A DNA stretch of 64,000 nucleotides from a virus (lineage: Duplodnaviria > Caudoviricetes), in the IMG/VR virus record IMGVR_UViG_2834368228_000004, positions 32,001 through 96,000 of that record; one strand, 5' to 3'. Positions within the stretch are counted from its first letter, which is position 1. Every line of letters starts with the position of its first letter. The notes under the pieces were generated by a model, which did not search any database, had not been told where the DNA came from, and saw only the letters and a program-made list of their open reading frames with translations. The position numbers and the translations under genes are program-made. Of the stretch, positions 8,313 to 51,937 are shown piece by piece.

Positions 8313-8322
8313 GCCGATAGGC
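8313..8322 (+). promoter_or_regulatory. GCC-GNNA-GGC mini-hairpin motif; other copies at 22611, 28396, 40899, 45458, 50111, 50700
   Basis: Seven copies, all in the same orientation, at gene junctions in the leftward arm. Confidence 0.7.
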
Positions 8323-8335
8323 AGTAAAGAAATTA

Positions 8336-9343
8336 CTACTCTAAGTTTAGAACATATCGAAATGCATCATTAATTAACTTTGTAATAGTATTTCTGAATT
8401 CTATTCGAGATAAGGCTAAAGCATGGTTTGGTTGATCTAAGAAACTATCCAATACACTTATAATATTTTGTTGAGCTAAGCGGATTCTCTTAGGATCTAA
8501 ATCAAACTTACCTCTATTATTATCCAATTCGCTACGAAGAATTTCATTTTCTTCTTGTAGTTTTGTCTTTTCTTCAAGATAAACATTACGCTCGTCAATT
8601 AACTGTTGAATTAATTCTTTGTTTTGAATGGTAGAAAGTTGTTCAGATAAGTCTTTTAAGTAAATAATATTTTGATGGATACTTTCATTCATAACAGCTA
8701 AGACTTCTCTATCCTGATGTGTCAATAAATTCTCTGGTGTAGGAACATGAGAAGATTGTTTTAAAAACAATTGAATTTTGTCATCAAGATTTAAATCGCC
8801 AGCGGAAAAGTCAATGCTCTTTTGAGGAACAAATTCTTTTTGCTTATCTGATTCTTCCTCATTTATTGCTGGCTCCTCTATGTGCTCTTCTACTTTATTT
8901 TCTGTTTTAATTTCATCTTCAACATTATCTTTAACAGGAGCTTCTTGTTCAACTTCTTCCACTTGCTGTCCCTGTTGTTCTTCCTTTTTTGAATTACTTT
9001 CAACAGTATCTAAAGCATTAGAGAAATCTTTCATTTTCTCTTGTAGTATAGTTCTATATTGATCTATATTGCCAGAGGTGAATATCTTTTTCTCAGGTAA
9101 GGCTTCTTGTTTCGAATCAGGCAAATAATAAAATTTACGATTATATTTTCCACGTTTATTTGAAAGTAACAAGCGTCCTTCATTTACAAGATTTTTAATA
9201 TGATAGTCAACTGTAGGACCTTTAACTCCATATTTTTTAGCTATCTCAGCAGTATTTATGAAGACTTCATCTTCGTTTCCATTTTCAAAAATATCAAGTA
9301 CATCATTATAAATTGTTTCTCTGTTTAATTGTTTTGAAGACAT
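8336..9343 (-). CDS. winged-HTH DNA-binding protein with coiled-coil C-terminus
   Basis: TAEIAKKYGVKGPTVDYHIKNLVNEG HTH, acidic linker, heptad region. Confidence 0.7.
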   Translation of the reverse strand: MSSKQLNRETIYNDVLDIFENGNEDEVFINTAEIAKKYGVKGPTVDYHIKNLVNEGRLLLSNKRGKYNRKFYYLPDSKQEALPEKKIFTSGNIDQYRTILQEKMKDFSNALDTVESNSKKEEQQGQQVEEVEQEAPVKDNVEDEIKTENKVEEHIEEPAINEEESDKQKEFVPQKSIDFSAGDLNLDDKIQLFLKQSSHVPTPENLLTHQDREVLAVMNESIHQNIIYLKDLSEQLSTIQNKELIQQLIDERNVYLEEKTKLQEENEILRSELDNNRGKFDLDPKRIRLAQQNIISVLDSFLDQPNHALALSRIEFRNTITKLINDAFRYVLNLE

Positions 9344-9435
9344 CTAAATTCCACCTCTCAAAAAGTTAGGTACTAACCATTATATACATGTCTCTGCAAA
9401 TATAGTCAAGTTAGTACCTGTAATGAGATTATATT

Positions 9436-11442: not shown

Positions 11443-11454
11443 TTTATAACCTCC

Positions 11455-12204: not shown

Positions 12205-12227
12205 GTTTTTTCTCTCCCTTTTTTAAA

Positions 12228-14897
12228 TTAGATTCTTCGCTTTACTTGCTTCATTAAATGAGGATGATACTGTGATAGAACATTGTAAAGCTCATTGAAT
12301 GTGTCTTTAATGTCCCATTGTGCTTCGTCAGACGTTCTAAGATTAATTAAGTGGTAAGCTTCCCATAAGTCAAAATTAGCCACTACACGTCTCTTATGTG
12401 CGTTTAAAATAAGATAGTCCGCTTCTTGATCGAAACCTTTTTCTACAAAGCTTACATACTGTGCAAATACTTTTTCATGTAAGTTCACTAAGAGATGTTC
12501 TAAACCAGCTGCTTTAATTCTTGGTGGAATTACTAATCCATTTTGCATAGAAGGCCCAGCAAACATAAAATCTGTTTTGCGGTTATGTCGCAAGAGCTGA
12601 TGCCAATTTGCTTCTGATACTTTTAGCTCAACCTGATAATTAACAGACTTAAAAGCTTCTGGTGCTGTATCAAAATGTTTAATATCAAAGAGAAGCTGTT
12701 CAATAATTTGATTTCTTTTTGCATAATCTAATTCTCTGGCACGATTAAGTGCAACTGAATAAGGAATATTTGATTGCTGTACAAAATATAAAGCTAAAAT
12801 ATTTAAAACCTCATCAAGTTCAAGGCCGACAGTAAGAACTTTAACATCACGTTGTAAACCTTGATCATCTTGAGTGGAATTAAAATTAGATTCAATAACA
12901 GATTGATGTTTTTTCTGGTATGGAGAAGCATCTGCGTATTTTAGTAAGACTGGTAATACTTTTGTTATCTCTTCTTTCAACGCTTTACGCATATCTTTAA
13001 CTTCAGTGTATTTGCTTGTCTCTAATTGTGCTAAGCCATCTCTCCAAGCACGACCATTAGCAGTCATACCTAATTGAGTGTACATGGCTAAAGGTAATGC
13101 ATAACGAGCATCTTCAAATGCAAGCTTTTTTAATGCATTATAGTCAGAAGACAGTTCTTTATCGATTTTAGTTAATTCCTTAACATTTTTATCATTCTCT
13201 TTTTGTTTCTTCTTAAGCTGTTTAAATTCTATAGAATCGTGATATTCAGATTTCAAATCCTTATAGACTTCATCAATTAACTTCTCAAATACATCAAAAC
13301 ATTCATTCATAGACTGTTCAAATTCTTTATGTTCTTTGCTATTCTTTTTGAATGGATTATGCCAATCACCACGTTTAGGCTTTTGATATCGCTGACTGTA
13401 TTCTGTAATACTGTAAAATGTATTACTAAGTTCAAGATCTGCACTTGCTAGTCGAGATACCTTTTCAATACCGACATGTGCTACAGCATGTTCTGCAACG
13501 CTGTTTCCGCTAATATGAACTCTTCCATTTCGACGCACAATTAATGTGTGATACTTTGGCAACTCTGCACAATAAACTAAACCACTGTAATCCTCCCAGT
13601 CATCAAAAATGTCATATTGAACTTTATTAACCATCGATTCAAGTAGCTTTTTTGTAATAAATAATCTCCATCCATCCTTATGGTTTTCAGATTGTGCAGG
13701 TCGCTCATAACTAAGATATGAACTCCAGCCTAATAGTAAAACTAAATGTTGCACTTGATCTGCTAATGTTTTACTAGAAGTATCATATACCATTGATCCA
13801 TTTCTATGATCTTTACTTCCATCTGAATTCATTAAGCCATCAAATAAATAATGAAGAATTGTGGAATCAAGTTCTAGAAGATTATCTGGGATTTGTTTTT
13901 CTCTATTTTCGTCATAACATTTTGATAAGATATCACCAATATCATTATTGTTAGATGTGATATAGAACTTATAATTTTTATTTGCTGAAATTGATAAGCC
14001 TAACTGTTCACAGAGAGAATATAGATAATCAATTTTACGTTGTTTTTTAATATGAAACTGAACTGAATGTTTTGTTCGGGTATCAATGTAACCATCTCCA
14101 ATAAAAAAGCCAAAAAGTTGTAGTAATGGCTCAATTGGGTATCCATATAATGTATCGGAAACGTCCCCATTCCAATTTAATCCACCTAATCTAACCTTAT
14201 AACATTTGTCTTTTAAATCTTCAGCATTAATTAACTGATATTTACGAGTTTCGAATTCTTTAATCTTATGACGAGGCCATGCAAAAACCTTATGATTTGG
14301 TGTTACCATCATATCTATACGGTTTCGATCAACCTTATACATTGGTCCAGTATAAGGTTCTTCAATGAGTTTAACTGGCTTTAAATATTCAACTTCTAAA
14401 GAGTCAGGATTTACAGATGCTAATTTATCATCATCATTAACACTAAACCAGTTTTTAAATCCTTTCTCCGTAAGAACTTCAGTTTTCTCATCGTAGCAAC
14501 TATGTCCGTACCCGACAGTCCACTTTTCATGAAAATCTTTTGCTTTCTTATCAAGACTAGTAAAAGTGTCTTGCTTCGGAACTTCTATATCAAATTCTTT
14601 TAAAGCTATTTGTAAATGTTCCTTAAACGATTTAGGTGAACGGGATACCCATGCGAATAAAGTTGCAACAAACTCTTCTGGTAAGTTTTTAATGGCATAG
14701 ATGTTCCCTTCTGGATTGCTGACAAAAGGAGAGATATCGATTGTTTTTTCTGTTTGTTTATTCTCTGATGATTCAGTTTTTGTAGGTCTTTTCCTTGTTG
14801 TGTTTCTCTTTTCTACTGTAGAAGTCTTATTGGAATCATTGATTTCTTCCTTTACTTCGACTTTTGTATTCTTTTCTTCTTGTTTTGTATTTGACAT
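12228..14897 (-). CDS. thyX: FAD-dependent thymidylate synthase with tandem ThyX domains, intein-containing
   Basis: GYGHS|SVAEH, SQRY, EDARYALP, QLLRH, LRTSDEAQWDI; start revised to ATG 14897 after AGGAGG. Confidence 0.88.
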   Translation of the reverse strand: MSNTKQEEKNTKVEVKEEINDSNKTSTVEKRNTTRKRPTKTESSENKQTEKTIDISPFVSNPEGNIYAIKNLPEEFVATLFAWVSRSPKSFKEHLQIALKEFDIEVPKQDTFTSLDKKAKDFHEKWTVGYGHSCYDEKTEVLTEKGFKNWFSVNDDDKLASVNPDSLEVEYLKPVKLIEEPYTGPMYKVDRNRIDMMVTPNHKVFAWPRHKIKEFETRKYQLINAEDLKDKCYKVRLGGLNWNGDVSDTLYGYPIEPLLQLFGFFIGDGYIDTRTKHSVQFHIKKQRKIDYLYSLCEQLGLSISANKNYKFYITSNNNDIGDILSKCYDENREKQIPDNLLELDSTILHYLFDGLMNSDGSKDHRNGSMVYDTSSKTLADQVQHLVLLLGWSSYLSYERPAQSENHKDGWRLFITKKLLESMVNKVQYDIFDDWEDYSGLVYCAELPKYHTLIVRRNGRVHISGNSVAEHAVAHVGIEKVSRLASADLELSNTFYSITEYSQRYQKPKRGDWHNPFKKNSKEHKEFEQSMNECFDVFEKLIDEVYKDLKSEYHDSIEFKQLKKKQKENDKNVKELTKIDKELSSDYNALKKLAFEDARYALPLAMYTQLGMTANGRAWRDGLAQLETSKYTEVKDMRKALKEEITKVLPVLLKYADASPYQKKHQSVIESNFNSTQDDQGLQRDVKVLTVGLELDEVLNILALYFVQQSNIPYSVALNRARELDYAKRNQIIEQLLFDIKHFDTAPEAFKSVNYQVELKVSEANWHQLLRHNRKTDFMFAGPSMQNGLVIPPRIKAAGLEHLLVNLHEKVFAQYVSFVEKGFDQEADYLILNAHKRRVVANFDLWEAYHLINLRTSDEAQWDIKDTFNELYNVLSQYHPHLMKQVKRRI
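13503..14498 (-). mobile_element. intein with LAGLIDADG endonuclease (332 aa) in thyX
   Basis: Begins CYDEKTEVLT, block B VTPNH, LFGFFIGDG and LFDGLMNSDG, ends HISGN before Ser. Confidence 0.92.
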
Positions 14898-15024
14898 TAT
14901 TATTCCTCCTATGTAATGCATTAATGCACAGCATAGAGCTGATTGGTTGAAACTACCTTGTCAGGGGTGTTTCACCATCCTTTTTATATTTTTTATTCAG
15001 CCCTATGCTGTGCATTAATTAGGT

Positions 15025-15162
15025 TCACGGTAGGCAGGATTTGAACCTGCGTGGGAAGGTATTTCCAGAGGACCCTTCATACAAAGTATCAACATCTTGG
15101 TTTTTTATTTCCTTCCTCCCCGCTCGTCGGGGTGCGTTCGGCCAGCTTCGCTACTTCCGTGA
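15025..15162 (-). ncRNA. tRNA-like RNA (Ser-like) with a 5-nt anticodon loop and greatly enlarged variable arm
   Basis: Acceptor ACGGAAG/CTACCGT, D arm GCG-AAGCTGGCCGAA-CGC, CCCCG-ACGAG-CGGGG, T arm GCAGG-TTCAAAT-CCTGC, discriminator G. Confidence 0.7.
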
Positions 15163-15433
15163 TAATAAAGTGGATGGCTTCGCACTCAGTTGTGCCGGGA
15201 CGCAAGATCCTATCACATAGTTAACGCCATCCAAATTAACTAAGTGATATGTTTGTTACAGCAGTTTTCATCTGCCCACTCTTTGCTAACTGTTTGCGGG
15301 GTCAGTTTGAAAGAGCAAAAGTCAACCACTCCCCCAATATCAGACAATCTATTTATCTACTATTGGGGGAGTTCCAACATTGTTGGATGCTCCACATCTG
15401 CTGTACGATACCTAGAAAGTAGTAGGTTCCTTA

Positions 15434-15880: not shown

Positions 15881-15902
15881 TTAAATGCTCCTCTAATCTC
15901 AA

Positions 15903-21864: not shown

Positions 21865-22557
21865 TTATTTTATGTTTGATCTGATGGTTAAGCTTTCAGT
21901 AGGCATTGTTAAAGCAAATCCATTAGGGAGTTTCTCTTTAAACTTAGGAAGCTCCCTTTCGATTACTTCTTCTCTTATTTCTTTCTCACGCTTTTTCGTA
22001 ACTTTTTTACTTTCACTCAACTGCTTCTCTCTATCTACTTCAAGCTCTACTATAGAGCTTACAATCTCTTCAAATTCATTCATGTAATACTTTTCAGATA
22101 ATCCTGTATCTAAAGGACCTGGCTTAATAAACTTTTCTAGCATATTCTGCTCAGCAAAATGCTGTCTAACCTCATCTTCATTTTCAACTTTTATTTTATG
22201 GGGTTTCTTTTGTAAATATGCAGTACCAATATCAAGTGATAATTTTTTACCTTTATTATCATTTCGAACAAAATTATCTACGATAGAATCAATTGCTGCA
22301 ATGTCTTCATTTTTTTTGTTAATTCTACGGTCCCAGTCTCTCATGATCGCAGATTTCATTGCTTTCATTTTTTCAATATCTTTTTTATTATATTCACGAG
22401 CCAACATCATTTTACGAATTGTGTATTCGTCCAATTCAGAGCGTACATATCCTCCTCCTTGTTCTACATTTCCAAGCATTTCTGCCATCATTTCTTGTAA
22501 AGATCCAGCTGCTTCTTCTCCTTCAAATACTAATGCATCAAGTAATTCTGCACTCAT
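21865..22557 (-). CDS. Mu Gam-like host-nuclease inhibitor (putative)
   Basis: Coiled coil followed by KKLSLDIGTAYLQK. Confidence 0.55.
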   Translation of the reverse strand: MSAELLDALVFEGEEAAGSLQEMMAEMLGNVEQGGGYVRSELDEYTIRKMMLAREYNKKDIEKMKAMKSAIMRDWDRRINKKNEDIAAIDSIVDNFVRNDNKGKKLSLDIGTAYLQKKPHKIKVENEDEVRQHFAEQNMLEKFIKPGPLDTGLSEKYYMNEFEEIVSSIVELEVDREKQLSESKKVTKKREKEIREEVIERELPKFKEKLPNGFALTMPTESLTIRSNIK

Positions 22558-22614
22558 ATTATATTCTCCTCTCAGACAATTGTTTTTAAATTTTTTAAAT
22601 CATAAAATAAGCCG

Positions 22615-23226
22615 TTAGGCGTTAAGAGAAAATTTTGTATCTCTTAATCTTTTTAAACGTTTCTCAATAGAGTTAACTGAACGATTTAATATATTAGCAA
22701 TATCTTTCTGTTTCATATTTTGGTTATAATACATATTCCATAGCTTTGTATCTTTAGCTGGAGTCCAATACTTCCCTTTATTTGAAGGTAATTGCACATC
22801 TATGGATATTTGCTCATCTAACCATTCTGGTTCTGGATTTAAAACTCTTCGCTCAATTCGTGACCAAATATAAAGATCTCTATTATTGCTGGCCCAATTC
22901 CAAAACCTTTTTACATCAATATAGTAAGGTTGGTTTTTTGAATTATTTCCTTTGAAGTAGAGTTTTTCACCTGGAAGACCTTTTTCATGTATATGCCTTA
23001 TTATTGTACTAGTATCCACATGAAGTGTTTTAGCTAATTCATTAGCAGAAAACATTCCAGTTTCTATGTGCTTTGTTGCACCCAATCTCTCCAATTGTCT
23101 TTGGACAGATCCTGGAGTTCGATTAAGACGTTTTGCTATAGCCTTAATTGTCTTGACTCTCCCTACTAGGAATAAGAGTTCTTCGTTTGCTTCTTCTGTC
23201 CAAGGATTTATATATTGATTAGACAA
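22615..23226 (-). CDS. multi-HTH DNA-binding protein
   Basis: WTEE...IAKRLNRTPGSV and WTPAKD...IANILNRSVNSI repeats. Confidence 0.75.
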   Translation of the reverse strand: MSNQYINPWTEEANEELLFLVGRVKTIKAIAKRLNRTPGSVQRQLERLGATKHIETGMFSANELAKTLHVDTSTIIRHIHEKGLPGEKLYFKGNNSKNQPYYIDVKRFWNWASNNRDLYIWSRIERRVLNPEPEWLDEQISIDVQLPSNKGKYWTPAKDTKLWNMYYNQNMKQKDIANILNRSVNSIEKRLKRLRDTKFSLNA

Positions 23227-26153: not shown

Positions 26154-27263
26154 TTATTCAGTTAATTGTAATTCTTCTTCTATATCTTCTTCCATGCTTG
26201 TAGCATCGATAAACTGTACATCTTTTGGTATACGGCCTTGAACAATATCATTGATATACTTAAATAATTCAGGTGACTCTTTCAATACTCTCTCTAAAGT
26301 ATCCTTACCTTGCCATTTTAATTCTTTACCTTGTTCATCTAAGTAAGGAGATTTAGAATCTTCAGGATCTGCTCCTAAGAAGTAATAAGCTCCTTTTCGA
26401 TGAATGATACCCATTTCAATAGCAACATTCATAATATCTTTTGATGTGTCAAATAAGGTGTCATAGTAATAATCAACTTCAGATTTTGTAAATGGTCTAG
26501 CTACTTTGTTTTTCTTAACAGAAAGAGTCATTGTTTGACCATAAACCATATCACCTTTTTTAATTTCTTTCTTTCTTACTTCTACTCGAATAGAAGCAAA
26601 GAATTTCAATGCACGGCCTCCTGGAGTCGTCTCCGGGTTTCCGTACATTACTCCAACCTTCTCACGAATCTGATTAATACAAATAATTAATACATCGTTT
26701 TTTAATGCTGGAGCAGTAATTTTTCGAAGTGCTTTAGATACCATTCGTGCTTGTAAACCCACTTGATTATCTTCATTACTTCCTTCAATCTCTTTTTTAG
26801 GAGTTAGAGCAGCAACTGAATCAATAACAACAAGTCCTACTTCACCGGAGTGAATCATTGCTTCGGTAGTATCAAAGGCTTGCTCCCCATAATCTGGCTG
26901 ATTAATAAGCATTCCAGTTTCTTCTGAAACATCTACTCCTAAACGCTCAACATGGAGTGGATCTAAAGCGTGCTCTGCATCTATATAGCACACATTAGGT
27001 CTTTTGGAGAAAAGGTGATTAGGATCTTTAGCTAATTTTTGATATTGAGCAACAGTTTGTAGAGCAATTGTTGTTTTTCCGCTTGATTCTGGTCCATATA
27101 ATTCTATAACTCTACCAAGTGGCCATCCACCAATTCCAAGCGCATAATCAAAACTAGGTATAGCAGTTGGAACTGGTTGGACTTTAACACTTTCTGTATC
27201 TTCAAACGAAAAGACTGTACCAGCCCCTAACTTTTTGTTCATCATATCTTTAAAGTTAGACAA
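26154..27263 (-). CDS. recA: recombinase RecA
   Basis: GPESSGKTT, IDAEHALD, DSVAAL, INQIREKVGVMYGNPETTPGGRALKF. Confidence 0.97.
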   Translation of the reverse strand: MSNFKDMMNKKLGAGTVFSFEDTESVKVQPVPTAIPSFDYALGIGGWPLGRVIELYGPESSGKTTIALQTVAQYQKLAKDPNHLFSKRPNVCYIDAEHALDPLHVERLGVDVSEETGMLINQPDYGEQAFDTTEAMIHSGEVGLVVIDSVAALTPKKEIEGSNEDNQVGLQARMVSKALRKITAPALKNDVLIICINQIREKVGVMYGNPETTPGGRALKFFASIRVEVRKKEIKKGDMVYGQTMTLSVKKNKVARPFTKSEVDYYYDTLFDTSKDIMNVAIEMGIIHRKGAYYFLGADPEDSKSPYLDEQGKELKWQGKDTLERVLKESPELFKYINDIVQGRIPKDVQFIDATSMEEDIEEELQLTE

Positions 27264-27635: not shown

Positions 27636-28346
27636 TTATTGTCCTACGAACTGTCCTTGAGGTGGTCCAAATTGTTGTCCTTGTGGTTGTTGAGGAGCTA
27701 CACCTGGTCCACCGAAACCACCTTGTGGAGGTACAAACCCACCTTGTGGTTGCTGTCCTTGGAACTGCTGTGGATTTCCTTGATTTTGGAAATTGTTCTG
27801 CTGTGTCTGTTGTTGCTGTCCAGAACCAGAATTATTACCTTTATTTTGACCAGCACCAAGTCCCATTAATTCATTCACACGAATTGTTGGGTAATAGTCA
27901 TAAATTGCTTTACCATTTGGATCTAACACATCTTGACCATTGTTTTGACGCTTTCTGCGTTTCAAATGAGGAATACCTTTCACAAAAACTTGACGACCAG
28001 ACTTACAATAATCCATTAGGAAATCATGCGTAGACGATCTTCCACCTTGATTCACCCACACTTCAATATTCCAAAAATCTGTTGGAGCATCTTGTCCACG
28101 ATGATTGTTTGCAATAGTTGCTTTTGCGACTTTTGCACCACTTGACATGACTTCTGATTTCGGGTCTTCTGTTAAACGAGCAATGATTGTGATTTCAGAA
28201 AAACTTGGTGAATTTGAACCTCCACCATTACCACCTGTATTTTGATTAGGGTTAAATTGACCTTGAGGTTGTTGAAACCCTCCTTGAGGTTGTTGGAAAC
28301 CTCCTTGTGGCTGTTGAAATCCATTGTTATTAAATCCGTTATTCAT
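27636..28346 (-). CDS. ssb: single-stranded DNA-binding protein with Q/G/N-rich tails
   Basis: OB fold (ARLTEDP, TDFWNIEVW, GRQVFVKG) flanked by GFQQPQG repeats. Confidence 0.85.
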   Translation of the reverse strand: MNNGFNNNGFQQPQGGFQQPQGGFQQPQGQFNPNQNTGGNGGGSNSPSFSEITIIARLTEDPKSEVMSSGAKVAKATIANNHRGQDAPTDFWNIEVWVNQGGRSSTHDFLMDYCKSGRQVFVKGIPHLKRRKRQNNGQDVLDPNGKAIYDYYPTIRVNELMGLGAGQNKGNNSGSGQQQQTQQNNFQNQGNPQQFQGQQPQGGFVPPQGGFGGPGVAPQQPQGQQFGPPQGQFVGQ

Positions 28347-28409
28347 AATTATTTCTCCTCTCAGTTTTTGAGTTTTTATTTTTTCTACTGAACTAGCCGA
28401 CAGGCGTTA

Positions 28410-31650: not shown

Positions 31651-32337
31651 TTAATTTACTATTAATGAAGTGCTCCAGCCTGCAAATGTTTTACCTGTTT
31701 CTTTTAGCTTGCTATAATCAAATTTTGTATGTTGCGTTTCTTCTAAAATTTGACGTAATGGCTTATTGAACTTATTTGTACTGCCTTGATGATACAAATG
31801 ATCATTAAATGGTTCCGATAACCAAGTCATCGGGTAGGTTTGCAATTGAACAAGGTCCTTTACTTCTTGATTATTGTAATAACATAGTGAACCATTCCCT
31901 TCAAAAACATTTGCATATGGAAAAATATATAAAAGTGATTCATCACGTAAGAAACGATCTTTATAGCAAAACACGTATTTATTAACAATACGATTATTTC
32001 TCACAAATAAAGCAAACACTAAATTTGGAACAGGTACTTGTTCAAAAGAATGATTATGATATCTAATATCCACATTCACTTCTGGATGGTTTAAGAAAAC
32101 AATATCAGTTTCATCGCTAAGTTTTGAATATTTTACAGTATTCATAGGAAGAGATGGAGATACAACTACAGGAGTTGGCTTCTCAATAACTTCTATATCA
32201 TCATCAGCCTTCATAGATTCAATAAGTTGCTGAACAAGATCTTGAACATTCATATAAATTTCATGCTTCGCACCTGCCTTTTCAATTATAACTTGAGCTG
32301 GCTTAAACTCATTTAGTATGATGGTTGCTTTGTTCAA
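31651..32337 (-). CDS. prokaryotic E2 family D protein (PRTRC protein B-like)
   Basis: VPVPNLVF, LYIFPYANVFEGNGSLC, FNDHL. Confidence 0.75.
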   Translation of the reverse strand: MNKATIILNEFKPAQVIIEKAGAKHEIYMNVQDLVQQLIESMKADDDIEVIEKPTPVVVSPSLPMNTVKYSKLSDETDIVFLNHPEVNVDIRYHNHSFEQVPVPNLVFALFVRNNRIVNKYVFCYKDRFLRDESLLYIFPYANVFEGNGSLCYYNNQEVKDLVQLQTYPMTWLSEPFNDHLYHQGSTNKFNKPLRQILEETQHTKFDYSKLKETGKTFAGWSTSLIVN

Positions 32338-32773: not shown

Positions 32774-33099
32774 ATGAATGCAACACTCCTTTGGATTCCC
32801 TTCATCCTTGACAGTTCATTAATACATGTAATTATTTTTTCTTGTTGAAGAATTTCATGGTCATAATCTTCAGGCTCTAAAGTCATCTCCATTGAAGGCC
32901 AATAAGTTATAAAGTCAAAATACCACTCTAAATCTTCTTCTGAAAAATTAGACAAGAAATCCTCTGTTATCATCGAATTTCTAGAAATAATATCATCCAT
33001 TGTTAATAACCGATCATAGATATGAACTCTTTCACTATCTAAGGAAGTTGTATTACATATTTTCTTACCAAAAGCAGATAAATTAAATTCTTGTTTCAT
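32770..33099 (-). CDS. hypothetical protein in the E1/E2 operon
   Basis: 109-aa ORF with ATGA overlaps. Confidence 0.65.
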   Translation of the reverse strand: MKQEFNLSAFGKKICNTTSLDSERVHIYDRLLTMDDIISRNSMITEDFLSNFSEEDLEWYFDFITYWPSMEMTLEPEDYDHEILQQEKIITCINELSRMKGIQRSVAFI

Positions 33100-33899
33100 G
33101 AAACCATGTCCTTTGTTAAATAAGTTGGTGAAACAATATTATTACGAGCATTAAAATTTGTGTAATGCGATACAATTTCATGGTCTGCAAGAATAGTATT
33201 TAAATAACCATTCATAATAAGAGCAGCCATCTCATTTGTTTGCATACGCTGAGGGTAATTAACTACTTGTTGACCGCAAGCTTCCATTGGAAGACGAGAA
33301 TCTTTGTCAGTCAAAATGTTCTCATATACACCTCCGACAGGAGCAAGAATGGTTTTAGAACTCCTTCGATAGCCGCAGACTACTTGACCTGAATACCCAC
33401 TTTCTTTGGATGCTTCTGGATCTACAGAGTCAATACCACTATCTAAATAAATTATCGTATTAGATGATTCGAAATACTTATGCATAATCTGCCTACTTGC
33501 ATTATTATCGACACAACCGATTAAAATTTGAATAGGAGAACCGAATGAATATTCAATATTAAAAAGTTCATGTAAGTTATCAGGTGAGTTAATATATTCA
33601 TCTTTATAAAAAATTGGAATCTGATATGCATTACTGTATCTCTCAGCTAATACTTTTGCTTTTGGCTGGTCTAAATCTTGGCTAATAAATGGCTGTCTTT
33701 GTAGATTTTTTGGCTCGACGATATCTCCATCAATAATTTTATAGGAGAACTCAAGGTTCTTATCCTTTTCTGAAAGAGCATATAGTAATTTAGATAAACG
33801 TTGAACCAAATAACCACCATTTCCACCAGCACCTACTTGAACAATATTGAAAAAATTTCGTGAGTAGTTAGAAGATAAGTCTATTGTTGGGTAATACAT
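33096..33899 (-). CDS. ThiF/E1-like adenylyltransferase (PRTRC type)
   Basis: VGAGGNGG, DGDIVEPKNLQRQ, KAKVLAERY, IGCVDNNASR, LDSG. Confidence 0.9.
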   Translation of the reverse strand: MYYPTIDLSSNYSRNFFNIVQVGAGGNGGYLVQRLSKLLYALSEKDKNLEFSYKIIDGDIVEPKNLQRQPFISQDLDQPKAKVLAERYSNAYQIPIFYKDEYINSPDNLHELFNIEYSFGSPIQILIGCVDNNASRQIMHKYFESSNTIIYLDSGIDSVDPEASKESGYSGQVVCGYRRSSKTILAPVGGVYENILTDKDSRLPMEACGQQVVNYPQRMQTNEMAALIMNGYLNTILADHEIVSHYTNFNARNNIVSPTYLTKDMVS

Positions 33900-40148: not shown

Positions 40149-40646
40149 CTATGATATAGCTACTTCATATAATTCCTTTTTGGCTTTCATGACATACTCA
40201 CTAGACTTATGAATCGTATACAATTGATTCTCTTGATTCGGGTATGGCTTTTCATAATGCACTTTATAACTAATTGTTTTCTCTTGAAGTAATTGAAATA
40301 CTTCTTGCCATAGATCTGCATGCTTTAAAAAACCACCATCCTTTCTCCTCCACTCTTTTTTCTCCCAGATAAACATGTTTTTATTTAATCCAGCAGATAC
40401 ATTTGGAATGTTTGTGTGAATATGAATGATAGAGCGATTTTTAATATTACGTAGGCCCTCAACGATAGCTTTAAGAGTCATACGAGTAACAGTTGTGTCT
40501 ATTGCATAGCCACCTATGTTCTTTTTATATGGAGTTCCACTTATGACAGAGTAAAGCATAGTTGCATATCCACCATTACCATCTTTATCAGCAGTTCCTG
40601 TCACATACATATCAATGCGTAGTTGATCAAATTCTTTCTTGCTCAT
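40149..40646 (-). CDS. RNase H-like protein, divergent active site
   Basis: GNGGYA, TTVTRMTLKAIVEGL, WEKKEWRRKDG...HADLWQ; several catalytic acidic residues appear substituted. Confidence 0.7.
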   Translation of the reverse strand: MSKKEFDQLRIDMYVTGTADKDGNGGYATMLYSVISGTPYKKNIGGYAIDTTVTRMTLKAIVEGLRNIKNRSIIHIHTNIPNVSAGLNKNMFIWEKKEWRRKDGGFLKHADLWQEVFQLLQEKTISYKVHYEKPYPNQENQLYTIHKSSEYVMKAKKELYEVAIS

Positions 40647-40870
40647 ACAGCAGTCCCCTCTCTTGTAGTCTTTCGTACATAATGATTAAAATAATGTTCT
40701 AAAATTGGTTTTAAGATAATCGGATTATTAACTATAGATATGAATTTCTTTCTGGTAGTCTGTAAATCTCCCTTATAAATGTAAAAAGAATAAGACTTAT
40801 AACGAATCAGTATTGCAAATTGGTTTCTATGTGATTTGATATGATAATTAACTTTTGATAAATCGATCAT
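40643..40870 (-). CDS. hypothetical protein
   Basis: 75-aa ORF with strong RBS. Confidence 0.6.
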   Translation of the reverse strand: MIDLSKVNYHIKSHRNQFAILIRYKSYSFYIYKGDLQTTRKKFISIVNNPIILKPILEHYFNHYVRKTTREGTAV

Positions 40871-40957
40871 TATTGGTTCCTCCTTCTTTCCTCTAACTGC
40901 CGATAGGCAAAAATTATCTACTTATATAGCCTATAAGCTATGTAAAATGATATATTT

Positions 40958-41277: not shown

Positions 41278-41886
41278 GTGAGGGTCATGGAAGTAGAATT
41301 TGTTACATTGGGGAATGCTTCAAAAATAATTGATACACCAGCTCCAACATTACGTGGTTGGGCAGACAAGCTAGAAGAGCTGCAAGTTCATTATTTAGAG
41401 CGGAATCATAGAGACGAACGAATCTTCTATGAAAGTGACATCAAGATATTTAGATACATGGCTGAACAAAAAAGCAAATATAATAGAAAGACAACAACAA
41501 CAGATATAGCCTATGTGATTGCTGAAAATGATAAATTTGAGTTGCGTCAAAAAGGTAGTGTTCCAGCAGTGCCAAAACATAAAGCTCAATTGTCAGAAAT
41601 AGACTTAGAGCATTTAGTGCAACAAAGAGATTTTCAAGAATTCATAGGTGGCATCATTCAACGTGCAACAGACGGTCTCTCGGAAGAGATAAGCGAAAAA
41701 GTATCTAATAATATGAGAGTCGAGTTAAATAACAAGCTCGATGATATTGAAGAAAGACGAATTAAAAGGATGGATCAATACCTAGCAGAGCAGCGTGAAA
41801 CACAAAAGATGATAGAAGAATACTTGAAACTTCCTGCATACAAAAAGATATTTAGTAAGAATCCGATGAAGAACACAAAAAAGTAG
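41278..41886 (+). CDS. MerR-like HTH, coiled coil and C-terminal amphipathic tail (TubY/RacA/DUF3967-like)
   Basis: ASKIIDTPAPTLRGW...ERIFYESDI, coiled coil, KLPAYKKIF. Confidence 0.7.
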   Translation: MRVMEVEFVTLGNASKIIDTPAPTLRGWADKLEELQVHYLERNHRDERIFYESDIKIFRYMAEQKSKYNRKTTTTDIAYVIAENDKFELRQKGSVPAVPKHKAQLSEIDLEHLVQQRDFQEFIGGIIQRATDGLSEEISEKVSNNMRVELNNKLDDIEERRIKRMDQYLAEQRETQKMIEEYLKLPAYKKIFSKNPMKNTKK

Positions 41887-41917
41887 TAGTGCTAATCAAA
41901 GCTCTGCTACTTTTTTG
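41879..41917. terminator. probable bidirectional intrinsic terminator
   Basis: A-tract, hairpin, T-tract between convergent genes. Confidence 0.6.
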
Positions 41918-41985
41918 TTATTTTGTTACAAAATATATTGTCTATAAATATATTGATATTTAATCACGAAACAACAAAATATTTT

Positions 41986-42459: not shown

Positions 42460-42705
42460 AACTAATTCACCACTCGTATAACTATCCAGCCCTTTGGCTT
42501 ATTCAATAATGAACCGGTATATACAATAGATTCAACAAAACCACTTTTTGGGCAGGTTCTCTCAATCAGATATTTTTTAAAATACATAAAATCACTCCTT
42601 ATAGATATTCTTCACATACAGGACAAGAAATCTCTTCTTTTTCAAATATTACTACACGTTCATTTGAACAAACAGAGCAATCCATAAAAAACATCTCCTC
42701 ATAAT

Positions 42706-44186: not shown

Positions 44187-44189
44187 TTC

Positions 44190-44522: not shown

Positions 44523-44582
44523 ATTTAATTTTTCTCCTTTATTTATATAGTATTTATGTTATGTGTTTAACGACAGTTATTA

Positions 44583-44879
44583 TTACCAATCATAGTAGGG
44601 GAGGTATTCAGCAATTTCTACATCTCTATCAAAAATAATCCATTCTGCTTCCATAACTAGACATGTAGATATAACATAAGCAAGACTATAGGGAAGAGAC
44701 ATTAAATCTATTTCATCTGTTATAGGAATAAACCAGCCATACTCTGATTTTGGATAAATGATTAAGTCTCCAGGGCCAAAACCTGTAGAGACCCATTGTT
44801 CTATTTGTTGAGCCACATCTTCTTTAAGATGAGAAGTAGATAGCTCAACAGCTTTAAATGTTCTTGGTGATTTAATCAT
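44583..44879 (-). CDS. DUF5983-like phage protein
   Basis: ELSTSHL, YGWFI, WIIFDRD, LPYYDW; start revised. Confidence 0.65.
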   Translation of the reverse strand: MIKSPRTFKAVELSTSHLKEDVAQQIEQWVSTGFGPGDLIIYPKSEYGWFIPITDEIDLMSLPYSLAYVISTCLVMEAEWIIFDRDVEIAEYLPYYDW

Positions 44880-47800
44880 TATAAACAACCTCCTTGATAT
44901 CGTTAATCTTACAGATTTCTTTAATGATACGTGTTTGTTTATCTTCATCCATATCATAATCCAAATCATAAGTATCAAGAGTATCAAAATCTTCTTGCTC
45001 ATTATCACTGTGGAGATAGACTTGAAAATACCCTTCATCACTAGACTCCTGAAGTGATACGTGATAAATATCCGTAACTTCTTCTAACATTTCCTCAATC
45101 TTTTCTCTTACATCTGCTTGATGTCCTGATAGAATCATTTCACCCTTTACATATAGCTCATAATCTTTTTCGCCCCACTTATAGTAGTCTGGCTTATTTT
45201 GCTTACCTGATTTATCTAGCAATTCCATAGTAATATAGGGGACATCTTCATCATTGTGCACTGTTCTATAAAACGTTTTAAACTTTTCTTCTATATTTTT
45301 ATCTTCTAAAGCCTTGTGTTTCACATGTTTAAGGAAGTCGTAATACATAAACTCACTGACAGACACTTCCTTTCCTTCAAGTAAGCTTTCTATATATCCA
45401 TCAAATCGTTCTTGGCTCACAATAAAACCCCCAATTATTATTTACTTCACAGCATTAGCCGACAGGCGGTTTAGATTTAATCATTTCCTTTCTGAGTTTC
45501 AAAACCTTTGATCTGCCACCATCCGTAGGATTCCTTGTCTGCTTCCTCATCATAATGTGCCAGTTGCCCAGAGCTATAACCTTTATTAATCATATGCTTG
45601 ATGTAGTCTTCATCAATTTCAGATAGATTCTTGTTCTCATCCATTTCAAACCAGTATTCGATTTCATGAAATAGAAGCATAGCCTTCATAATTGTACTCT
45701 CCTTTACTATTGATACTGTTCAATAGTTCATTTCTTATGTGCTCCTTTTCAATTGCTAACATAAATGGATATCACCAAGAACTTTTAGTTTATTGTAATC
45801 ACGTTTATTACTTTTTGCTTTTATAATATATATATATATATAATGGCAACTACTATTATAATCTTTATCTTCAACCTTTTTTATGATTTCAGTCTGAATA
45901 CTTTTTGCATTATATTCCAAGTAGTCAATTACTTCGTTATCATCTTCTCCCCAGGTTTTAATCCTAAAGGATTTATTAAATAGCATGATTTTCTCCTTTT
46001 TTAGAAGACAACACTAAGGGAAGGGGATTACCTGAAGCGTCAGTCTTAGATAAGACTTCAATCATTGCATGTTCATAAAATAAAGTTTTATCTATGTTGT
46101 TATGCTTTGAGATAACATCATATGAATACTGACGGATTTCATCGTCCGAGAGCTCAGTCATATTAGAATGATAGAGAGTATACGTAAGAGTTAACTCGTC
46201 TTCTAAGATAAAGCTAACTTTATATTCTTGTTCAGACAATACTGGAGCGGCCAGTTTAGTTTCTATAGAACGCAATTCATTAGTAAATCCATACATGACG
46301 GCTAACTGCTGAATCTCTTGACTACCAATAAAAGAAGCCAATAATTTATTGTTGATAGATTTATTCATTTTCATTCTCCTTTTCTCGATAAAATTATAGA
46401 TTTTAAATTAAAATGTTATTTTCAATAATCAAAATACCTAAAAAACCAGATACAGTTGAGACTACTTTCATACTCCCTTTCTCTACTATTATATGCCCCT
46501 TATTTGCACCAAATAGAAAATCGTTAGGTGATTCATACTGTAGCTCTAAGTTATCAATATGAAACTGGTTACTTAATGCTCTCTTTATTTTATCTAACAT
46601 TCTCTTCTCTCTCCTTTTTGGATAAAATTATAGTTTTAACCTGTTTTTAAATAGGATTGCAAATGATTCTTTGAAGCTCTCTGCTAAGTTTTCATCAAAG
46701 AATCGAACACCTTCAATAAAATCATAAACTTGATTTTCAAATGTTCTTGCTTTGTCTTGATTATTTGGTTTAATAGCCCATTCCCAGTAACCAACATATT
46801 GTTTAAACTCTTTTTCGATCTCTTGATTTGATAAAATTCGCTCTCTTTCATAATCCAATACTTTTGCATCTGTTTCTGAATTTTTAACTCCAAATGCTTT
46901 ACGGATGATGCTAATTTGTATCATTACACGTTGACTTTGTTCTCTGGTGTACAATGGTTGGGTATCTAATTCAATAACTTTTTTCATTAATTCTTTATTA
47001 TTCATTTGTTATTCCTCCAAACAATTAATGTACGTGCCTTTCTAGATATAATTTCATAGCATCAAAAAACAATTCAGTAAGAATATATCTCTGATCTACA
47101 TCTGTTGGTTCAATAATATTATTATCTATAAAAAACTTAAGTGAATTAACATATGCCTTTTCTTCACTTTCAGGAGAAATAATAGCAACTTTAGAACGTT
47201 CATCTTCAATCTTAACTTCTTCAATCAATTGCCATGCAAGTGTAGCGATAGTAATAGCTTCATGTTTTTTATTCATATCGATAGTCAATGTAATTACTCC
47301 TTTATATTTTATTCGAACTATGCACTAACTTTTTTTAAAACATTCTTCACGATATAATTGCCCATCTATCAATAACCAACCTTCTTTATACTGTTGTGCC
47401 TTGTACATTTCGCCTAGTATAAAGTCGTAATTGTTATGCCATTTAACATAAATAACATCCATCGTCTAACACCTCACTGGTTCGGATTTTATTCGGACTA
47501 TGCAGTAACTTTTAATTGTTCGTTTGCTAATTTAATGCCTAATAGATAAGCCACGAAACACATTGGCAACTTCTTTCCGAATTCGGATAAGATTGAAAAA
47601 TCTTCGCCATCGAAATAATAAAATGAGTTGTCCATATAATAATTAAAAAGCTCTCTTTCCAATTCTTTTGGTGTACATACGGATTCTATAGTGCCTTTCA
47701 GAAATTTATATATTTCTTTAGCTTCTTTAAGCGACTTATCTTCTGCATCATAAGTATTTTCTTCATACCAATCTTTCAAATCGTTTTTGGCTTTCCGTTC

Positions 47801-50642
47801 ATCAAAATACCAGCGTTCTCTTGAATGGCATGATAGTTTTCCTAGCAAATATCCTAGATCTATATTGTTAAAACTTTGCGGAGTAGCTATCCATGTCAAA
47901 TTGAAAATTGCATCACCAATATCTCCTGAAACATATAATCTTGAACCGCAGAAAATATATCTTACTGAATAAATAGATGTTCCTGGCTCTCTCCAATCTA
48001 AGATAGTTATACCGTCATACTCAGTTATTTTTGCTTCATGATTATTGAACCATTTATCCTTTATTTCCTGTTCCATTTCTTCAATTTCTCTCATTTTTAC
48101 CACCCTTTCAATGCTTTGTATTTTCTATCAAATTCGAATTAGTTATTCTCATAAAACATTATAAGCTTCGATGGTTCTTGTTCCACTGGTTGAAGTTTCA
48201 CTTTCGTATAATCAACCTTATATAATTCATCAGTGTCTACTTCAAATCGACCCATCTTTTTTACAACAAAAGCCAAGAAGTGTTGGGCCTGAGCTTTCTG
48301 CCTTTCTAATTCTCTTATTTGTTTCTCAGTTTCCTTTAACCTGTCGATAACATCTTGAAACATAACAATCCTCCTATACAAATAAATTAAGTTCCTCTAT
48401 CTTTTCAAACAGATTAGTATATAAAGTAGAGTTCTTTGGAATCTTAGTAAACTCTGTTCTGTTATCATCAAGCTGTTTCATCTTAAAGAAGTCTGATGAT
48501 AACAGAAAACCAAACAATTCCTCATCGTTATGTCCAAGAATGGAAGACACATCATGTAGCTCTTCAAAGTTATGTAATAAGCAATACAAGTAATCACGAT
48601 AATATAGATCATTTTGAAGAACAAACTTATCTGTCTTAAGAAGACTATCCTCTAAACTTTCAAGGACAGATTTATCTATCCAATGAATAGGGTCATGCAA
48701 GTAACTTAGATCTCCATCTTCATCAAAAGGAATTATATCTAAAACATCGTCTTTAGCATTGCTCATATCAAACACTCCTCCAAATAGTTAATCATACGTA
48801 AATATATTTCCGGTCACGCAATAGCTCTTCAGTAATTTCACCAGAAGGAATAGCTTTCTTAGCTAACTCTAATAACTCAGAGTCCTTACCTTGAATGACA
48901 ATACGAACTCCTTTTTTAGAATTATATACATTTACTTGAACGGTATCGATTGTATCAAATCCTTCAAGAATACATTGAACACCATATGAAATAGGCTTTC
49001 TTTCACAAACAACAGCATTAATGCCAGAAGCCCAACTACCAACAAATCCATTAACTAATGCATTAAACAATTCGTCTTTATTCAATAGAAAAACCTCCAA
49101 TATAATATATCTACCATGAAATCCACATAGCAACTACGTCACCATTTTCAAGTCCTAATATTTCAGACATTGCCTTGAAATACATTTCAATTTCATCTAA
49201 CTCAACATTTTCTCGATGATCCCAATCTATATGCATTCGTATGTACATATCATTATGAACACGATACCTTGAGAGGATGTACTTCTTCCAGAAATCATCC
49301 TTACTCATATACCCATTAGCCTCCATATGATACATAACTTTGAATAAATCAAAGACACGATTATCTTTAATCTCTAAGACATCAGTATTACATTTAGGGC
49401 AAAACAACTCATAGTGCATCTCGAGAACATAACCACAATTCTTACATTCTCCGTAGTGCATAGTAAAAACCTTCTTTCTCTAATTATGGAATATTCAGAC
49501 ACTTACACTCCTCCTAAAAGAAAAAGATATACCTCTTACTAATAGGGGAGAGACATACATACTTAACCTATAAAGAAACAATACTCACAACAACCATGTG
49601 CTTGAAAGAAATCTGACTCTGTATTATCACAAGAGCAATCATCATTCTTCTTTGATTCATCTACAATATCATTAGACTGCATTATGCAACCTCCTCACAT
49701 AAGTCATCTACATAATGCCATATCTCACCAACAAATTGGTCAACTAAATCTCCATCAGCTTCAACAAATACACTCATTGAAGTCTTATTAGAGTAACCAA
49801 ACTCTTTTACAAGTTTACGTAAGAAATCTTCTAGGCTACTATGATCATGAAAACTAATCATTCTATTGCTAACAACTAAAGTATACTCATGCATAAATTA
49901 ACCTCCAATATAATATAATGCTTACAATCATTTATTATTAAGTGAATAAGAAGACATTAACTCCTCTTGTTTACAAGCACAACCACCAAAGGGGTCTTCC
50001 AGTGTACGGCATTTCAAACAGCAAGAACTATCCTGCATTTCATCAATAATATAATCAGATTGCATCAACATAAACAACACTCCTATTATAATAATACTTC
50101 TACACAATTAGCCGACAGGCAATTATTCAATACTATACAATTCATTAAAATAAACATACCATTCATCTAGCTTAGATAATATGCGTTTATTAATTAACGT
50201 ATAACGCTTATGAGAACTTTCAAGAAGCAGGTCTTCATAGTAATAGATTACCTCATGATAGTTATATAAATCTTCGATGTTATTATCCATTACCATACAC
50301 TCCTGCTGTTTAAAGAATATTCAGACATCTATACAAGCCACCCCAATTTTAAAAGAGTGGTTAATAATACATATCAGAGAGGGGATAGTATGTAAGTATA
50401 ATATAAAGACTATGTAAGAAATATTAATCCCCTCTAACTACTAGAAACTATATAGCAAATGTTATCTCATCTTTACCAACAGATTCATCTACTACATCAA
50501 TAGAATGAAAATACCATTCGTCTATCTTTCTTTCTAATCGACTAAGCTTTCTTTGATCCCCTTGTGGTTTCAACTTGTTTTGAATAAGCTCTTCATAATA
50601 CCCTAACCTATAGTGGAACTTGGCACATTCTCTCTCTGTCAT
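44872..50642 (-). other. array of about 16 small leftward hypothetical genes (44872..45420, 45477..45689, 45756..45986, 45976..46374, 46403..46600, 46628..47005, 47025..47288, 47498..48103, 48139..48381, 48374..48775, 48792..49133, 49111..49461, 49682..49894, 50448..50642 and shorter ones)
   Basis: Tightly packed ORFs, most with a clear RBS; typical phage early or accessory region. Confidence 0.7.
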
Positions 50643-51937
50643 GCTAATACCTTCTCCTTTGTTATTCTATCTCTTTTATATATTTATATCTTCGTAACTG
50701 CCGATAGGCATCCCAAATTAAGTTCGATTAACTTACTATGTAATACACTACATCATCATAACACACAATACATTAGATTATAGTAAATATCTATACGAAC
50801 ACATACGAACAAATAGTGAACAATTTGTGACAGTTAAAGTATAATGTAGCGAAACCTTAGGAATTCCCCGTCTTAATACTATGTGAGAGGGTTTTACAAC
50901 AAACATCGAAAACTAACAGTGAAAACCTCATACTTACAGTGTAGGCATAATGAAAAAAGATAGCCTCATCAAAAAGATAGCAAACTACTAGAGAAAATGT
51001 AATACTCTTCAAGAATAGTCCTCCAAGTATAGAAAGCTACGACACCATCATCGAGTTAACCGGTACCTCCCAGCCATAGCGTGAGGATGATGTCGTCCGT
51101 GGCCCCCGTATGCCCTTTTGGAAACAGCATAAATCTAAAACCTTCGAGTCAATGTATGTACGTTTGACAAGGGAGTAAGAAAATTGATACCACCAAGCTT
51201 TCATATAGTATTTCCCTCGTGTTCCGCTTCCATATATAACCGCCATACATATAAGTGACATCACCATAAAATACATACTTCTTACCACAATAGCATGACA
51301 GTGCTCATACTTCTTAACACTAATAAAATACGCCAATACTATATAGTATGCTGTCAACATATCACCTATAGATGACACACCTTACATAGTACACTGACAG
51401 TATGGTCGCCTGTAGTAAACTTGGGGAATGTAGGGTGCCGGCAGTGTTGCCGATAATAATAAACCCACCACATGTAGGAGCTACCACACCCACTGGGAGG
51501 TGAATGAGATTGTCTGACGGGAGTTGCAATGTTACCGAAGGTTAAATGTCACGTTGGCATCAGGGAAGCTGAGAGAGCCTTCTATTTAATCCTGAGCGGT
51601 TTAGCGATAAGAAGGATGGTAGCATGCGGTGTGTGTGGGTGTTGAGTAGAACACGTACAATGTGTGAGTGTTCGGATGGTGGCGTACGGATAATGCGAGA
51701 CTGATATATACTTTTGCTCGGTCAAAGTATGCTATGTGTGTGGTGAAAGGCGAACAATGATAGGGAGCGGATGGTGTGGATAGCCTTCTCCGAAGGTAGA
51801 GAGGGAGGGAGAGAGGGTAGTATGTTGAGGGTTATCATATATGAGGATGTAGCATGCACACCCGAAGGGTGGGAGAACCCCTATCCGAAGGAGTTCTCCA
51901 TTGTCATACTTGGGTGATTAAGCTATAATTACAGTTA

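Follow-up and report, generated by a model that had tools for sequence, protein, structure and literature searches.

Oriented mini-hairpins downstream of a QDE-1/YonO-type RNA polymerase gene in a phage-like element: candidate structure-specific promoters of its replication arm

Described phage systems and the replication arm under study

Several described phage transcription systems bear on the locus examined here, a 64,000-nucleotide (nt) stretch of viral DNA (Duplodnaviria; Caudoviricetes; positions 32,001 to 96,000 of IMG/VR record IMGVR_UViG_2834368228_000004; hereafter the window) that constitutes the replication arm of a large phage-like element and carries seven copies of a mini-hairpin motif past the gene for a predicted single-chain RNA polymerase of 1178 amino acids (aa). 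In the early promoters of coliphage N4, the variable stem bases do not matter provided that the hairpin is preserved; extrusion and stability require the C:G closing pair and, in the template loop, the 5' G and 3' A, which act through a sheared G.A pair. A short spacer sets the distance to the start in the manner of a ruler, and there the template +1 base is C and the RNA begins with G (PMC4496689). For the Bacillus thuringiensis phage 0305phi8-36, Hardies et al. (2007) listed 14 "21-bp phage-specific promoter candidates" as proposed targets of gp99, and reported a linear 21-bp logo without describing the sites as hairpins (PMC2147016). YonO of the Bacillus prophage SPbeta has a mapped late promoter, P(YonO), whose sequence and cofactor need are undefined according to the study that showed YonO to be an RNA polymerase (Forrest et al. 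2017, PMC5467207). Finally, the Thermus phage P23-45 encodes a tape-measure-fused virion RNA polymerase and a non-virion RNA polymerase, gp64, with distinct promoter motifs; the gene of the second enzyme is expressed first and its product then serves a distinct promoter class, all promoters being sigma-independent (bioRxiv 10.1101/2022.12.01.518664).

Besides the polymerase, the arm encodes a primase, two helicases, an anaerobic ribonucleotide reductase activase-like protein, a RecA/UvsX-like recombinase, SSB and RNase H. Genes from about position 1 to 57,400 are nearly all directed leftward, and the polymerase gene (51938..55474, minus strand) stands at the head of this array. Its product scores 32.1 bits against the Pfam RdRP profile PF05183 (cut-off 23.8; E-value 6.9e-8; residues 524-803) and carries the metal-binding D-x-D-G-D loop of the second barrel as G-G-A-D-N-D-G-D at residues 680-687, within a pattern, G-G-A-D-x-D-G-D, that is invariant across 13 homologues of 30-69% identity. 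A sequence-only search of the PDB with the polymerase profile returned no match; a PDB fold search with the AlphaFold2 (AF2) model of the protein (predicted local distance difference test score, pLDDT, 80.7; predicted template-modelling score, pTM, 0.71) gave QDE-1 of Neurospora (E-value 1.8e-15, template-modelling (TM) score 0.42-0.54) and plant RDR2 as its best matches. Judged from sequence and predicted fold, the protein is probably a QDE-1/YonO-type single-chain two-barrel polymerase, and DNA-templated RNA synthesis is predicted for it. All cellular RNA polymerases, and also the RNA-silencing polymerases of eukaryotes, are related to the single-chain enzymes of the YonO type.

YonO itself is a single-chain two-barrel DNA-dependent RNA polymerase of the same superfamily, but its gene is shorter (2520 nt, about 840 codons), and it transcribes late structural genes from one start, whereas the motif described here would serve a replication arm at many sites. 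Megablast and tblastn searches of a phage collection for close cultured relatives gave nothing useful; with the 1178-aa polymerase as tblastn query, that collection gave a single match, to Bacillus phage BUCT082 (22.7% identity over 21% of the query), and none to SPbeta. The gp64-type enzymes gave only weak fold matches to the 1178-aa model. For the seven sites past this gene, we put at about even the chance that they are structure-specific promoters, of a middle or early class, for the replication arm and that the element's own 1178-aa polymerase reads them; the promoter role, the template DNA strand as the thing read and the identity of the reader are what we infer from the comparisons that follow.

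An oriented, covarying hairpin in the element and its relatives

A preliminary description of this DNA had reported seven GC-rich 10-mers, all in one orientation and six of them a short distance upstream of a leftward start codon. The same seven were recovered as matches to GCCGNNAGGC, all on the plus strand at positions 8313, 22611, 28396, 40899, 45458, 50111 and 50700, against a mean of 0.16 copies in dinucleotide-preserving shuffles of the 64-kb window, none of which reached seven. On the sense (minus) strand the motif reads GCCT[AG][TA]CGGC, and the loops on the plus (template) strand agree with those first described (GATA and GACA at three sites each, GTTA at one). Allowing one mismatch in GCCGNNAGGC adds just two matches, which is chance level, so the motif is sharply defined; a search with GCCNNNNGGC adds a single site, at 42489, whose loop differs. 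Each of the seven lies in a short gap ahead of a Shine-Dalgarno-led start codon. The distance from the 10-mer to the next leftward start is 28-57 nt at six sites, including 49 nt to ssb in the ssb-recA group that had been singled out; at 8313 it is 47 nt to a seven-codon mini-open reading frame (ORF) and 207 nt to the next ORF. The upstream stop codon lies anywhere from -6 to 1077 nt away. The earlier impression that obvious sigma-A boxes are missing also survived a defined search: a -35/-10 hexamer pair with 16-18 nt spacing and a score of at least 9/12 is missing within -120..+20 at six of the seven sites, and such pairs are rarer in the region than in shuffled sequence. One detail, the Gam-like gene, was not confirmed: neither Pfam nor PHROGs gave a Gam match for any gene downstream of a site.

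All seven sites lie downstream of the polymerase gene and none upstream of it. We extended this comparison to ten related records, taken whole and oriented by their polymerase gene, which together with the window give 11 elements. The polymerase homologues, 28-69% identical, come from contigs and one "plasmid" of about 90-230 kb (several of them incomplete) from Virgibacillus, Paenibacillus, Alicyclobacillus and metagenomes; assemblies of Virgibacillus salexigens, Paenibacillus rhizovicinus and Alicyclobacillus shizuokensis isolates contain such elements. Across the 11 elements, the 10-mer GCCT[AG][AT]CGGC occurs in 61 copies on the polymerase strand and eight on the other, and within 80 kb of the polymerase gene 55 copies lie past its stop codon and one ahead of its start. 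Ten of the elements carry the 10-mer; in seven of these the first copy follows the polymerase stop codon by 0.4-1.5 kb, and in the other three by 4-25 kb. The closest relative, of 191 kb, has a 118-kb structural arm with zero copies. The sites number 7-16 and are spread over 45-60 kb. The co-occurrence of motif and polymerase that the preliminary description had put forward as a check is thus borne out, in that the motif is tied to elements with this polymerase family and begins right after its gene.

In the GC-richer relatives, the two bases flanking the 10-mer on each side are complementary and co-vary, and the GCC/GGC core itself is swapped for GGC/GCC, CGC/GCG, GTC/GAC and others, without any change in the loop or in the downstream tail. 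When sites are anchored on loop and tail only, the five flanking positions form either 0-2 or 4-5 consecutive Watson-Crick pairs, and the 4-5-pair class is seen on the sense strand only. In an ungapped alignment of 79 sites from the 11 elements, 92% of stem cells are paired and each of the five pairs includes changes on either side; covariation scores 0.707, compared with 0.151 in shuffled alignments (none of 500 reaching the observed value) and at most 0.12 for slid partners. Many of the 79 sites were chosen for pairing at the inner three positions, but the outer two pairs were left unselected and are still paired in 77-85% of sites, with four pair types. By these compensatory changes, the motif is a real oriented hairpin element, as first proposed from the seven window copies.

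One sub-type that recurs, CGCC-TNNC-GGCT, is mispaired at its fourth stem position (C.T on the sense strand, A.G on the template) and is found at 45456-45469, 28394-28407 and 22609-22622 of the window and at G001 148235, G002 153157, G003 3695 and G003 3971 in the relatives (labelled G001 to G010). Its presence in four lineages suggests a tolerated or selected non-canonical pair.

The loop reads T..C in the sense strand, hence G..A on the template, and is closed by a C:G pair at all seven window sites and at most of the 79 aligned sites; the exceptions are five G010 sites with the loop ATCC and a few sites closed by T:A. A template loop of the form G-N-N-A closed by C:G, as the preliminary description had it, is the same chemistry that the N4 hairpin promoters need. 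Loop and tail classes are congruent with the polymerase tree: TRTC loops occur in the window, G001-G004 and G006, TGAC loops in G007 and G009, TAAC/TGAC loops with a GGCTTTTTGA tail in G005 and G008, and an ATCC loop with a CCCC stem in G010, the most divergent record. Such congruence is expected of a polymerase and its promoter, and equally of anything that diverges with the genome. Past the stem comes a lineage-specific T-rich block and then a purine at a fixed distance. The tail is ATTCAT-N3-GA(T/A)(G/A) in G003, G004, G007 and G009, with a purine at +11 past the 5-bp stem in every G004 and G009 site, and TTTT(A)GGG in G006; in the window and its nearest relative (G001) it is TT..(G)T(A)GAA, with the step from T to purine at about +7/+8.

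With respect to the N4 promoters, the hairpins share a small stem that is free in sequence but paired, and a template loop with 5' G and 3' A closed by C:G. N4 has a short fixed spacer to the start, and here a purine follows the T-rich tail at a fixed distance; N4 promoters are sigma-independent, and sigma-A boxes are missing at six of the seven sites; N4 transcription involves SSB, and an ssb gene lies behind one site. However, the N4 loop has 3 nt and its stem 5-7 bp, as opposed to a 4-nt loop and stems of 3-5 bp here (up to 9 bp in the distant contig L033, below), and N4 has three sites at the first-injected end rather than 7-16 along an arm. The N4 reader is a T7-like single-subunit virion RNA polymerase, whereas the candidate readers here are two-barrel enzymes of the QDE-1/YonO type, so the likeness lies in how the promoters work and not in family. 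The sites are therefore not members of the N4 promoter family but only possible functional analogues, their likeness being convergent if the analogy holds.

Over the 79 sites, the next Shine-Dalgarno-led start lies at a median of 44 nt (interquartile range 35-75), whereas the upstream stop lies at a median of 45 nt (interquartile range 3-297); a narrow start distance beside a wide stop distance indicates that the element is positioned relative to the following gene. This bears on a role as polymerase-specific terminators or attenuators, in which a small hairpin with a T-rich tail would punctuate the array. A T-rich tail does lie within 1-3 nt of the GC-rich stem in several clades, many sites fall 0-10 nt past a stop codon, and the virion polymerase of P23-45 has a conserved 26-nt terminator motif (bioRxiv 10.1101/2022.12.01.518664). 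We nevertheless regard a terminator role as very improbable. Beyond the fact that position tracks the downstream start and not the upstream stop, the window stems have only 3-4 bp and tails such as agttacgaag and taattgtgtagaag have no T-run, the stems of L033 are followed by purine-rich ATGAAA or ATAGA instead of T-runs, and the ATTCAT-N3-GA tail is sequence-specific and no simple U-run. In addition, the one clear convergent junction in the window has an ordinary long-hairpin terminator, and the fourth site from the polymerase gene (40899) has no co-directional gene for 1 kb upstream.

The same architecture appears in more distant polymerase clades. In L033, a viral contig of an AT-rich clade separate from the main family, whose polymerase fragment is about 27% identical, seven sense-oriented hairpins lie downstream of the polymerase gene, with covarying stems of up to 9 bp, a constant TAAC loop, and ATGAAA, ATAGA or ATGGGA directly after the stem. 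Hairpins of this clade map to L033 12687-19860 and to L071 933, 12135 and 13193, and they would be the best natural substrates for tests of hairpin recognition. The right arm of Bacillus phage 0305phi8-36 likewise contains sense-oriented hairpins, about 19 in number; their outer stem covaries, their core is CGT/ACG, their loop TCGC and their tail TTTTGTA, and they correspond to the published 21-bp phage-specific promoter candidates. Like the present element, 0305phi8-36 combines structural and non-structural arms in a jumbo phage, encodes a polymerase of the RdRP family close to where the non-structural arm begins, and has a repeated motif of about 21 bp, a T..C-loop hairpin with a T-rich tail, in short gaps of that arm; on the other hand, the loop, core stem and tail sequences of 0305phi8-36 are not those found here, and its RdRP-like gp99 is only remotely similar (best stretch E-value 1.8e-8 with the family profile). 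The T..C sense loop (G..A on the template) thus recurs in three deeply separated polymerase clades. The preliminary description had called such a system undescribed, which needs qualification: phage-specific promoters for the RdRP-like gp99 were proposed in 2007, while their hairpin nature was not described there (PMC2147016). What is new here is the hairpin nature, the covariation and the spread across a polymerase class; phage-specific promoters accompanying an RdRP-like polymerase had been proposed in 2007, and hairpin promoters were known from N4.

Possible roles of the hairpins and candidate readers

If the sites are promoters for the 1178-aa enzyme, the following sequence of events can be envisaged. 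There is no site before the polymerase gene, so its expression must come by other means, and either the host enzyme or an injected virion enzyme would provide it. Once made, the polymerase would recognise a mini-hairpin with a 3-5-bp GC-rich stem, free in sequence as long as it is paired, and a loop that reads G-N-N-A on the template and is closed by C:G. The T-rich stretch past the hairpin would then melt, and initiation would take place at the purine some 8-11 nt past the hairpin, giving leaders of 15-45 nt that include the ribosome-binding site. A layout in which the motif never stands before the polymerase gene in the window and begins soon after it favours the 1178-aa enzyme as reader. 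T7 promoters likewise begin after gene 1.

More broadly, it is conceivable, at somewhat less than even confidence, that the QDE-1/YonO-type polymerases of this family, of the L033 clade and of 0305phi8-36 (gp99) read their promoters by shape, through a template mini-hairpin whose loop has a sheared G.A pair and whose stem is paired but free in sequence, followed by a short melting tail. Were this so, it would represent a sigma-free solution reached independently of the T7-like virion enzyme of N4, two unrelated polymerase folds would each have evolved the recognition of promoters by structure, and the target of the YonO class would be defined. The compact conserved element (hairpin, 4-nt loop, tail and purine), with its natural stem-swap variants in many genomes, provides a template on which initiation can be assayed in vitro and the structure of initiation complexes can be studied, and could yield a small orthogonal transcription system for Gram-positive hosts.

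Several observations weigh against reading the sites as hairpin promoters of this enzyme. The match between motif class and polymerase clade is confounded by genome-wide relatedness, and in the G010 clade the loop is ATCC, so that the template is not G..A. Predicted stabilities of the 3-4-bp window stems in single-stranded DNA are -2.6 to -3.7 kcal/mol (-6.6 to -10.8 in the relatives), too weak for unaided extrusion from duplex DNA, and spontaneous extrusion at the window sites is doubtful. The compensatory changes suit an RNA hairpin equally well, and the non-Watson-Crick stem cells, about three sense G.T and four sense A.C, favour neither strand. Co-occurrence, moreover, cannot single out the 1178-aa enzyme, as the eight relatives that retain a structural arm all share a second candidate, discussed below. 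Finally, YonO-like loci of Lachnospiraceae phages, searched over 20-kb flanks for 5-bp stems, showed no such hairpins.

The ambiguity of strand is the starting point for a role in RNA, in which a protein would recognise the stem-loop within long transcripts, either between cistrons or in a 5' untranslated region, be it as a processing site for a dedicated endoribonuclease, as a stabilising end structure after cleavage, or as a nut/boxB-like loading site for an antiterminator. Compensatory stem changes are as compatible with an RNA helix as with a DNA one, the constant loop suggests a sequence-specific binder, and the sites fall in between the co-directional genes of the array. T7 and lambda provide precedents, in RNase III sites between cistrons and in boxB hairpins. 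Taken jointly, we consider these RNA-level roles unlikely, though far from negligible. Among RNA loops, U-N-N-C is not known as a stable or a recognised form, whereas the complementary G-N-N-A, closed by C:G, corresponds to the DNA loop of the N4 type; the purine at a fixed distance past the T-rich tail resembles a start site; and another class of promoter that would supply the arm was not found, sigma-A-like sites there falling below the shuffled level. The site at 40899 also bears on this role. Just upstream of it, an inverted 202-aa gene (41278..41886, plus strand) breaks the leftward array, with a local reversal of GC skew, and at the convergent junction lies a two-way intrinsic terminator (41874..41919) consisting of an A-run, a long hairpin and a T-run (segment minimum free energy -23.8 kcal/mol, z -3.5). 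The site sits within the roughly 400-nt divergent gap behind this gene, an arrangement that recurs in the 69%-identical relative, and with an inverted gene and a conventional terminator ahead of it, leftward transcription has to restart there. A translational operator was ruled out separately because the distance to the ribosome-binding site varies.

Promoters read by a different enzyme would leave the promoter role intact while changing the reader, and the genomes offer two sources for one. The first is a giant protein of about 2260-2350 aa, encoded between two other proteins of about 2000 aa in all eight relatives with a structural arm (G001-G008; at 70383-77162 in G001, that is L078:10383-17162, minus strand). 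In seven of them it has a K-A-D-S-D-G-D-type version of the D-x-D-G-D loop near residue 1830-1920, the 2308-aa ORF of G004 giving no match to the search pattern; it may be a second, injected RNA polymerase, to judge from this loop. Injected polymerases are known from N4, the crAss-like phages and P23-45. The second source is the host polymerase, which a phage factor would redirect; one candidate for that factor is the helix-turn-helix protein with sigma-70 region 4-like matches encoded in the arm at 22615-23226. Precedents exist in N4, whose hairpin promoters are read by the virion enzyme (PMC4496689), and in P23-45, whose tape-measure-fused virion polymerase and second polymerase each have their own promoters (bioRxiv 10.1101/2022.12.01.518664). 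P23-45 resembles the present case in having two phage-encoded two-barrel polymerases, one of them in the virion module, with the giant protein as the candidate second enzyme here, but its promoter motifs are linear AT-rich and GC-rich boxes for which no hairpin is reported.

Even so, another reader seems distinctly unlikely. In the 11 elements the sites begin only after the 1178-aa polymerase gene, which an injected early enzyme should serve as well; 7-16 sites over 45-60 kb better suit an enzyme abundant in the cell than one injected as a few molecules; hairpins of the same architecture are found alongside RdRP-type polymerases in L033 and 0305phi8-36; and Pfam does not recognise the giant protein as a polymerase (for the one relative searched, it returned no polymerase family and weak exonuclease-like matches at the N-terminus). 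Of the original proposal that the 1178-aa polymerase uses hairpin promoters, the part concerning a genuine oriented hairpin tied to the polymerase family stands, whereas the choice of this enzyme over the co-occurring giant protein is not singled out by the distribution.

Another role at the DNA level, as priming signals on the lagging-strand template or as boxes for a regulator of duplex DNA, is scarcely probable. The strictly one-sided orientation along an arm of replication genes and the palindromic outer GCC/GGC would suit it, but tight coupling to Shine-Dalgarno-led start codons is unexpected for priming sites. A duplex-binding palindrome was ruled out, since the arms change sequence while pairing is kept.

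In SPbeta, the undefined YonO promoter can be compared with the tail of the present family. A TCATTTATGARG box, which resembles the ATTCAT-N3-GA tail, occurs in exactly two copies in the 134-kb genome, both in the yonN-yonK gap, and one TCATTTATGAGG box lies inside the amplicon of the published primer-extension primers used to map the YonO start, a placement made relative to the amplicon rather than to the published coordinate (2225998, strain 168). No T..C-loop mini-hairpin stands directly before these boxes. In the locus L163 (4430-4610; SPBc2 record 60435-60603, minus strand), the two boxes extend over about 24 nt, ending in TCATTTATGA(A/G)GG, and are the only exact copies in SPbeta. They are a candidate for the core of the YonO promoter, which we offer as a lead and not as evidence.

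Individual sites and neighbouring features

The seven sites, all on the minus strand, are numbered from the polymerase gene. Site 1 (50686..50711; 10-mer at 50700), tGCC-TATC-GGCa plus tail, is the first copy, 1.2 kb past the polymerase stop codon and 57 nt from the ATG of ORF 50448-50642. Site 2 (50097..50122), GCC-TGTC-GGC followed by taattgtGTAGAAG, lies about 40 nt from the ATG, led by a ribosome-binding site, of the small ORF 49928-50107. Site 3 (45444..45469) has the same stem and loop followed by taatgctGTGAAG; it falls 9 nt past the stop of ORF 45477-45689 and 37 nt before the GTG of ORF 44872-45420. At site 4 (40885..40910; 10-mer at 40899), tGCC-TATC-GGCa is followed by gttAGAGG and, 28 nt on, by the ATG of ORF 40643-40870, after which comes the RNase H gene. 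Site 5 (28382..28407), GCC-TGTC-GGC then tagttcaGTAGAA, is the one 49 nt ahead of ssb (27636-28346), with the recA/UvsX-like gene (26154-27263) further downstream. Site 6 (22597..22622), GCC-TAAC-GGC, lies 53 nt from ORF 21865-22557, and the TAA of its loop is the stop codon of the helix-turn-helix gene at 22615-23226. Site 7 (8299..8324), tGCC-TATC-GGCa then tgttttAGAGA, stands 13 nt past the stop of ORF 8336-9343; the ORF 207 nt away encodes 66 aa (7905-8105), and the primase gene lies further downstream. The mini-ORF after site 7 (8245-8268, minus strand) has a strong ribosome-binding site and an ATG and could be a leader peptide, or could reflect a frameshift or a sequencing error in a small gene. 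A further copy with a variant stem, CTCC-TGTC-GGAG then gtgtatATGAGAA, may be present at 33331..33344 (minus strand) inside ORF 33096-33899; it is an unverified candidate that may have arisen by chance.

Directly after the polymerase stop codon, the window has 560 nt (51379-51937) lacking any ORF of at least 60 aa; the equivalent gap of the 69%-identical relative measures 1.1 kb and already contains two hairpin sites. A search of Rfam at the gathering threshold gave no family at the sites or in 51379-51937, and no hammerhead was found in the polymerase cassette (51103-57138).

The helix-turn-helix protein at 22615-23226 (minus strand) has 203 aa and three helix-turn-helix units, including the sigma-70 region 4-like matches (Sigma70_r4_2, E-value 1.4e-9; PHROG "transcriptional regulator, D5-like"), and is a candidate factor for another temporal class of transcription. 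An 897-aa ORF at 12228-14921 (minus strand) has both thymidylate-synthase/PhoH-like and LAGLIDADG homing-endonuclease matches, which suggests an intein-containing gene, and a neighbouring gene in a relative matches Intein_splicing and LAGLIDADG_3 of Pfam. Beyond the polymerase cassette, the rightward arm carries a GOLLD RNA in full length (Rfam RF02032; 205.9 bits, gathering score 150) at 61032-61476 on the plus strand, next to two tRNA genes of the same strand, at 60415-60486 and 60579-60653.

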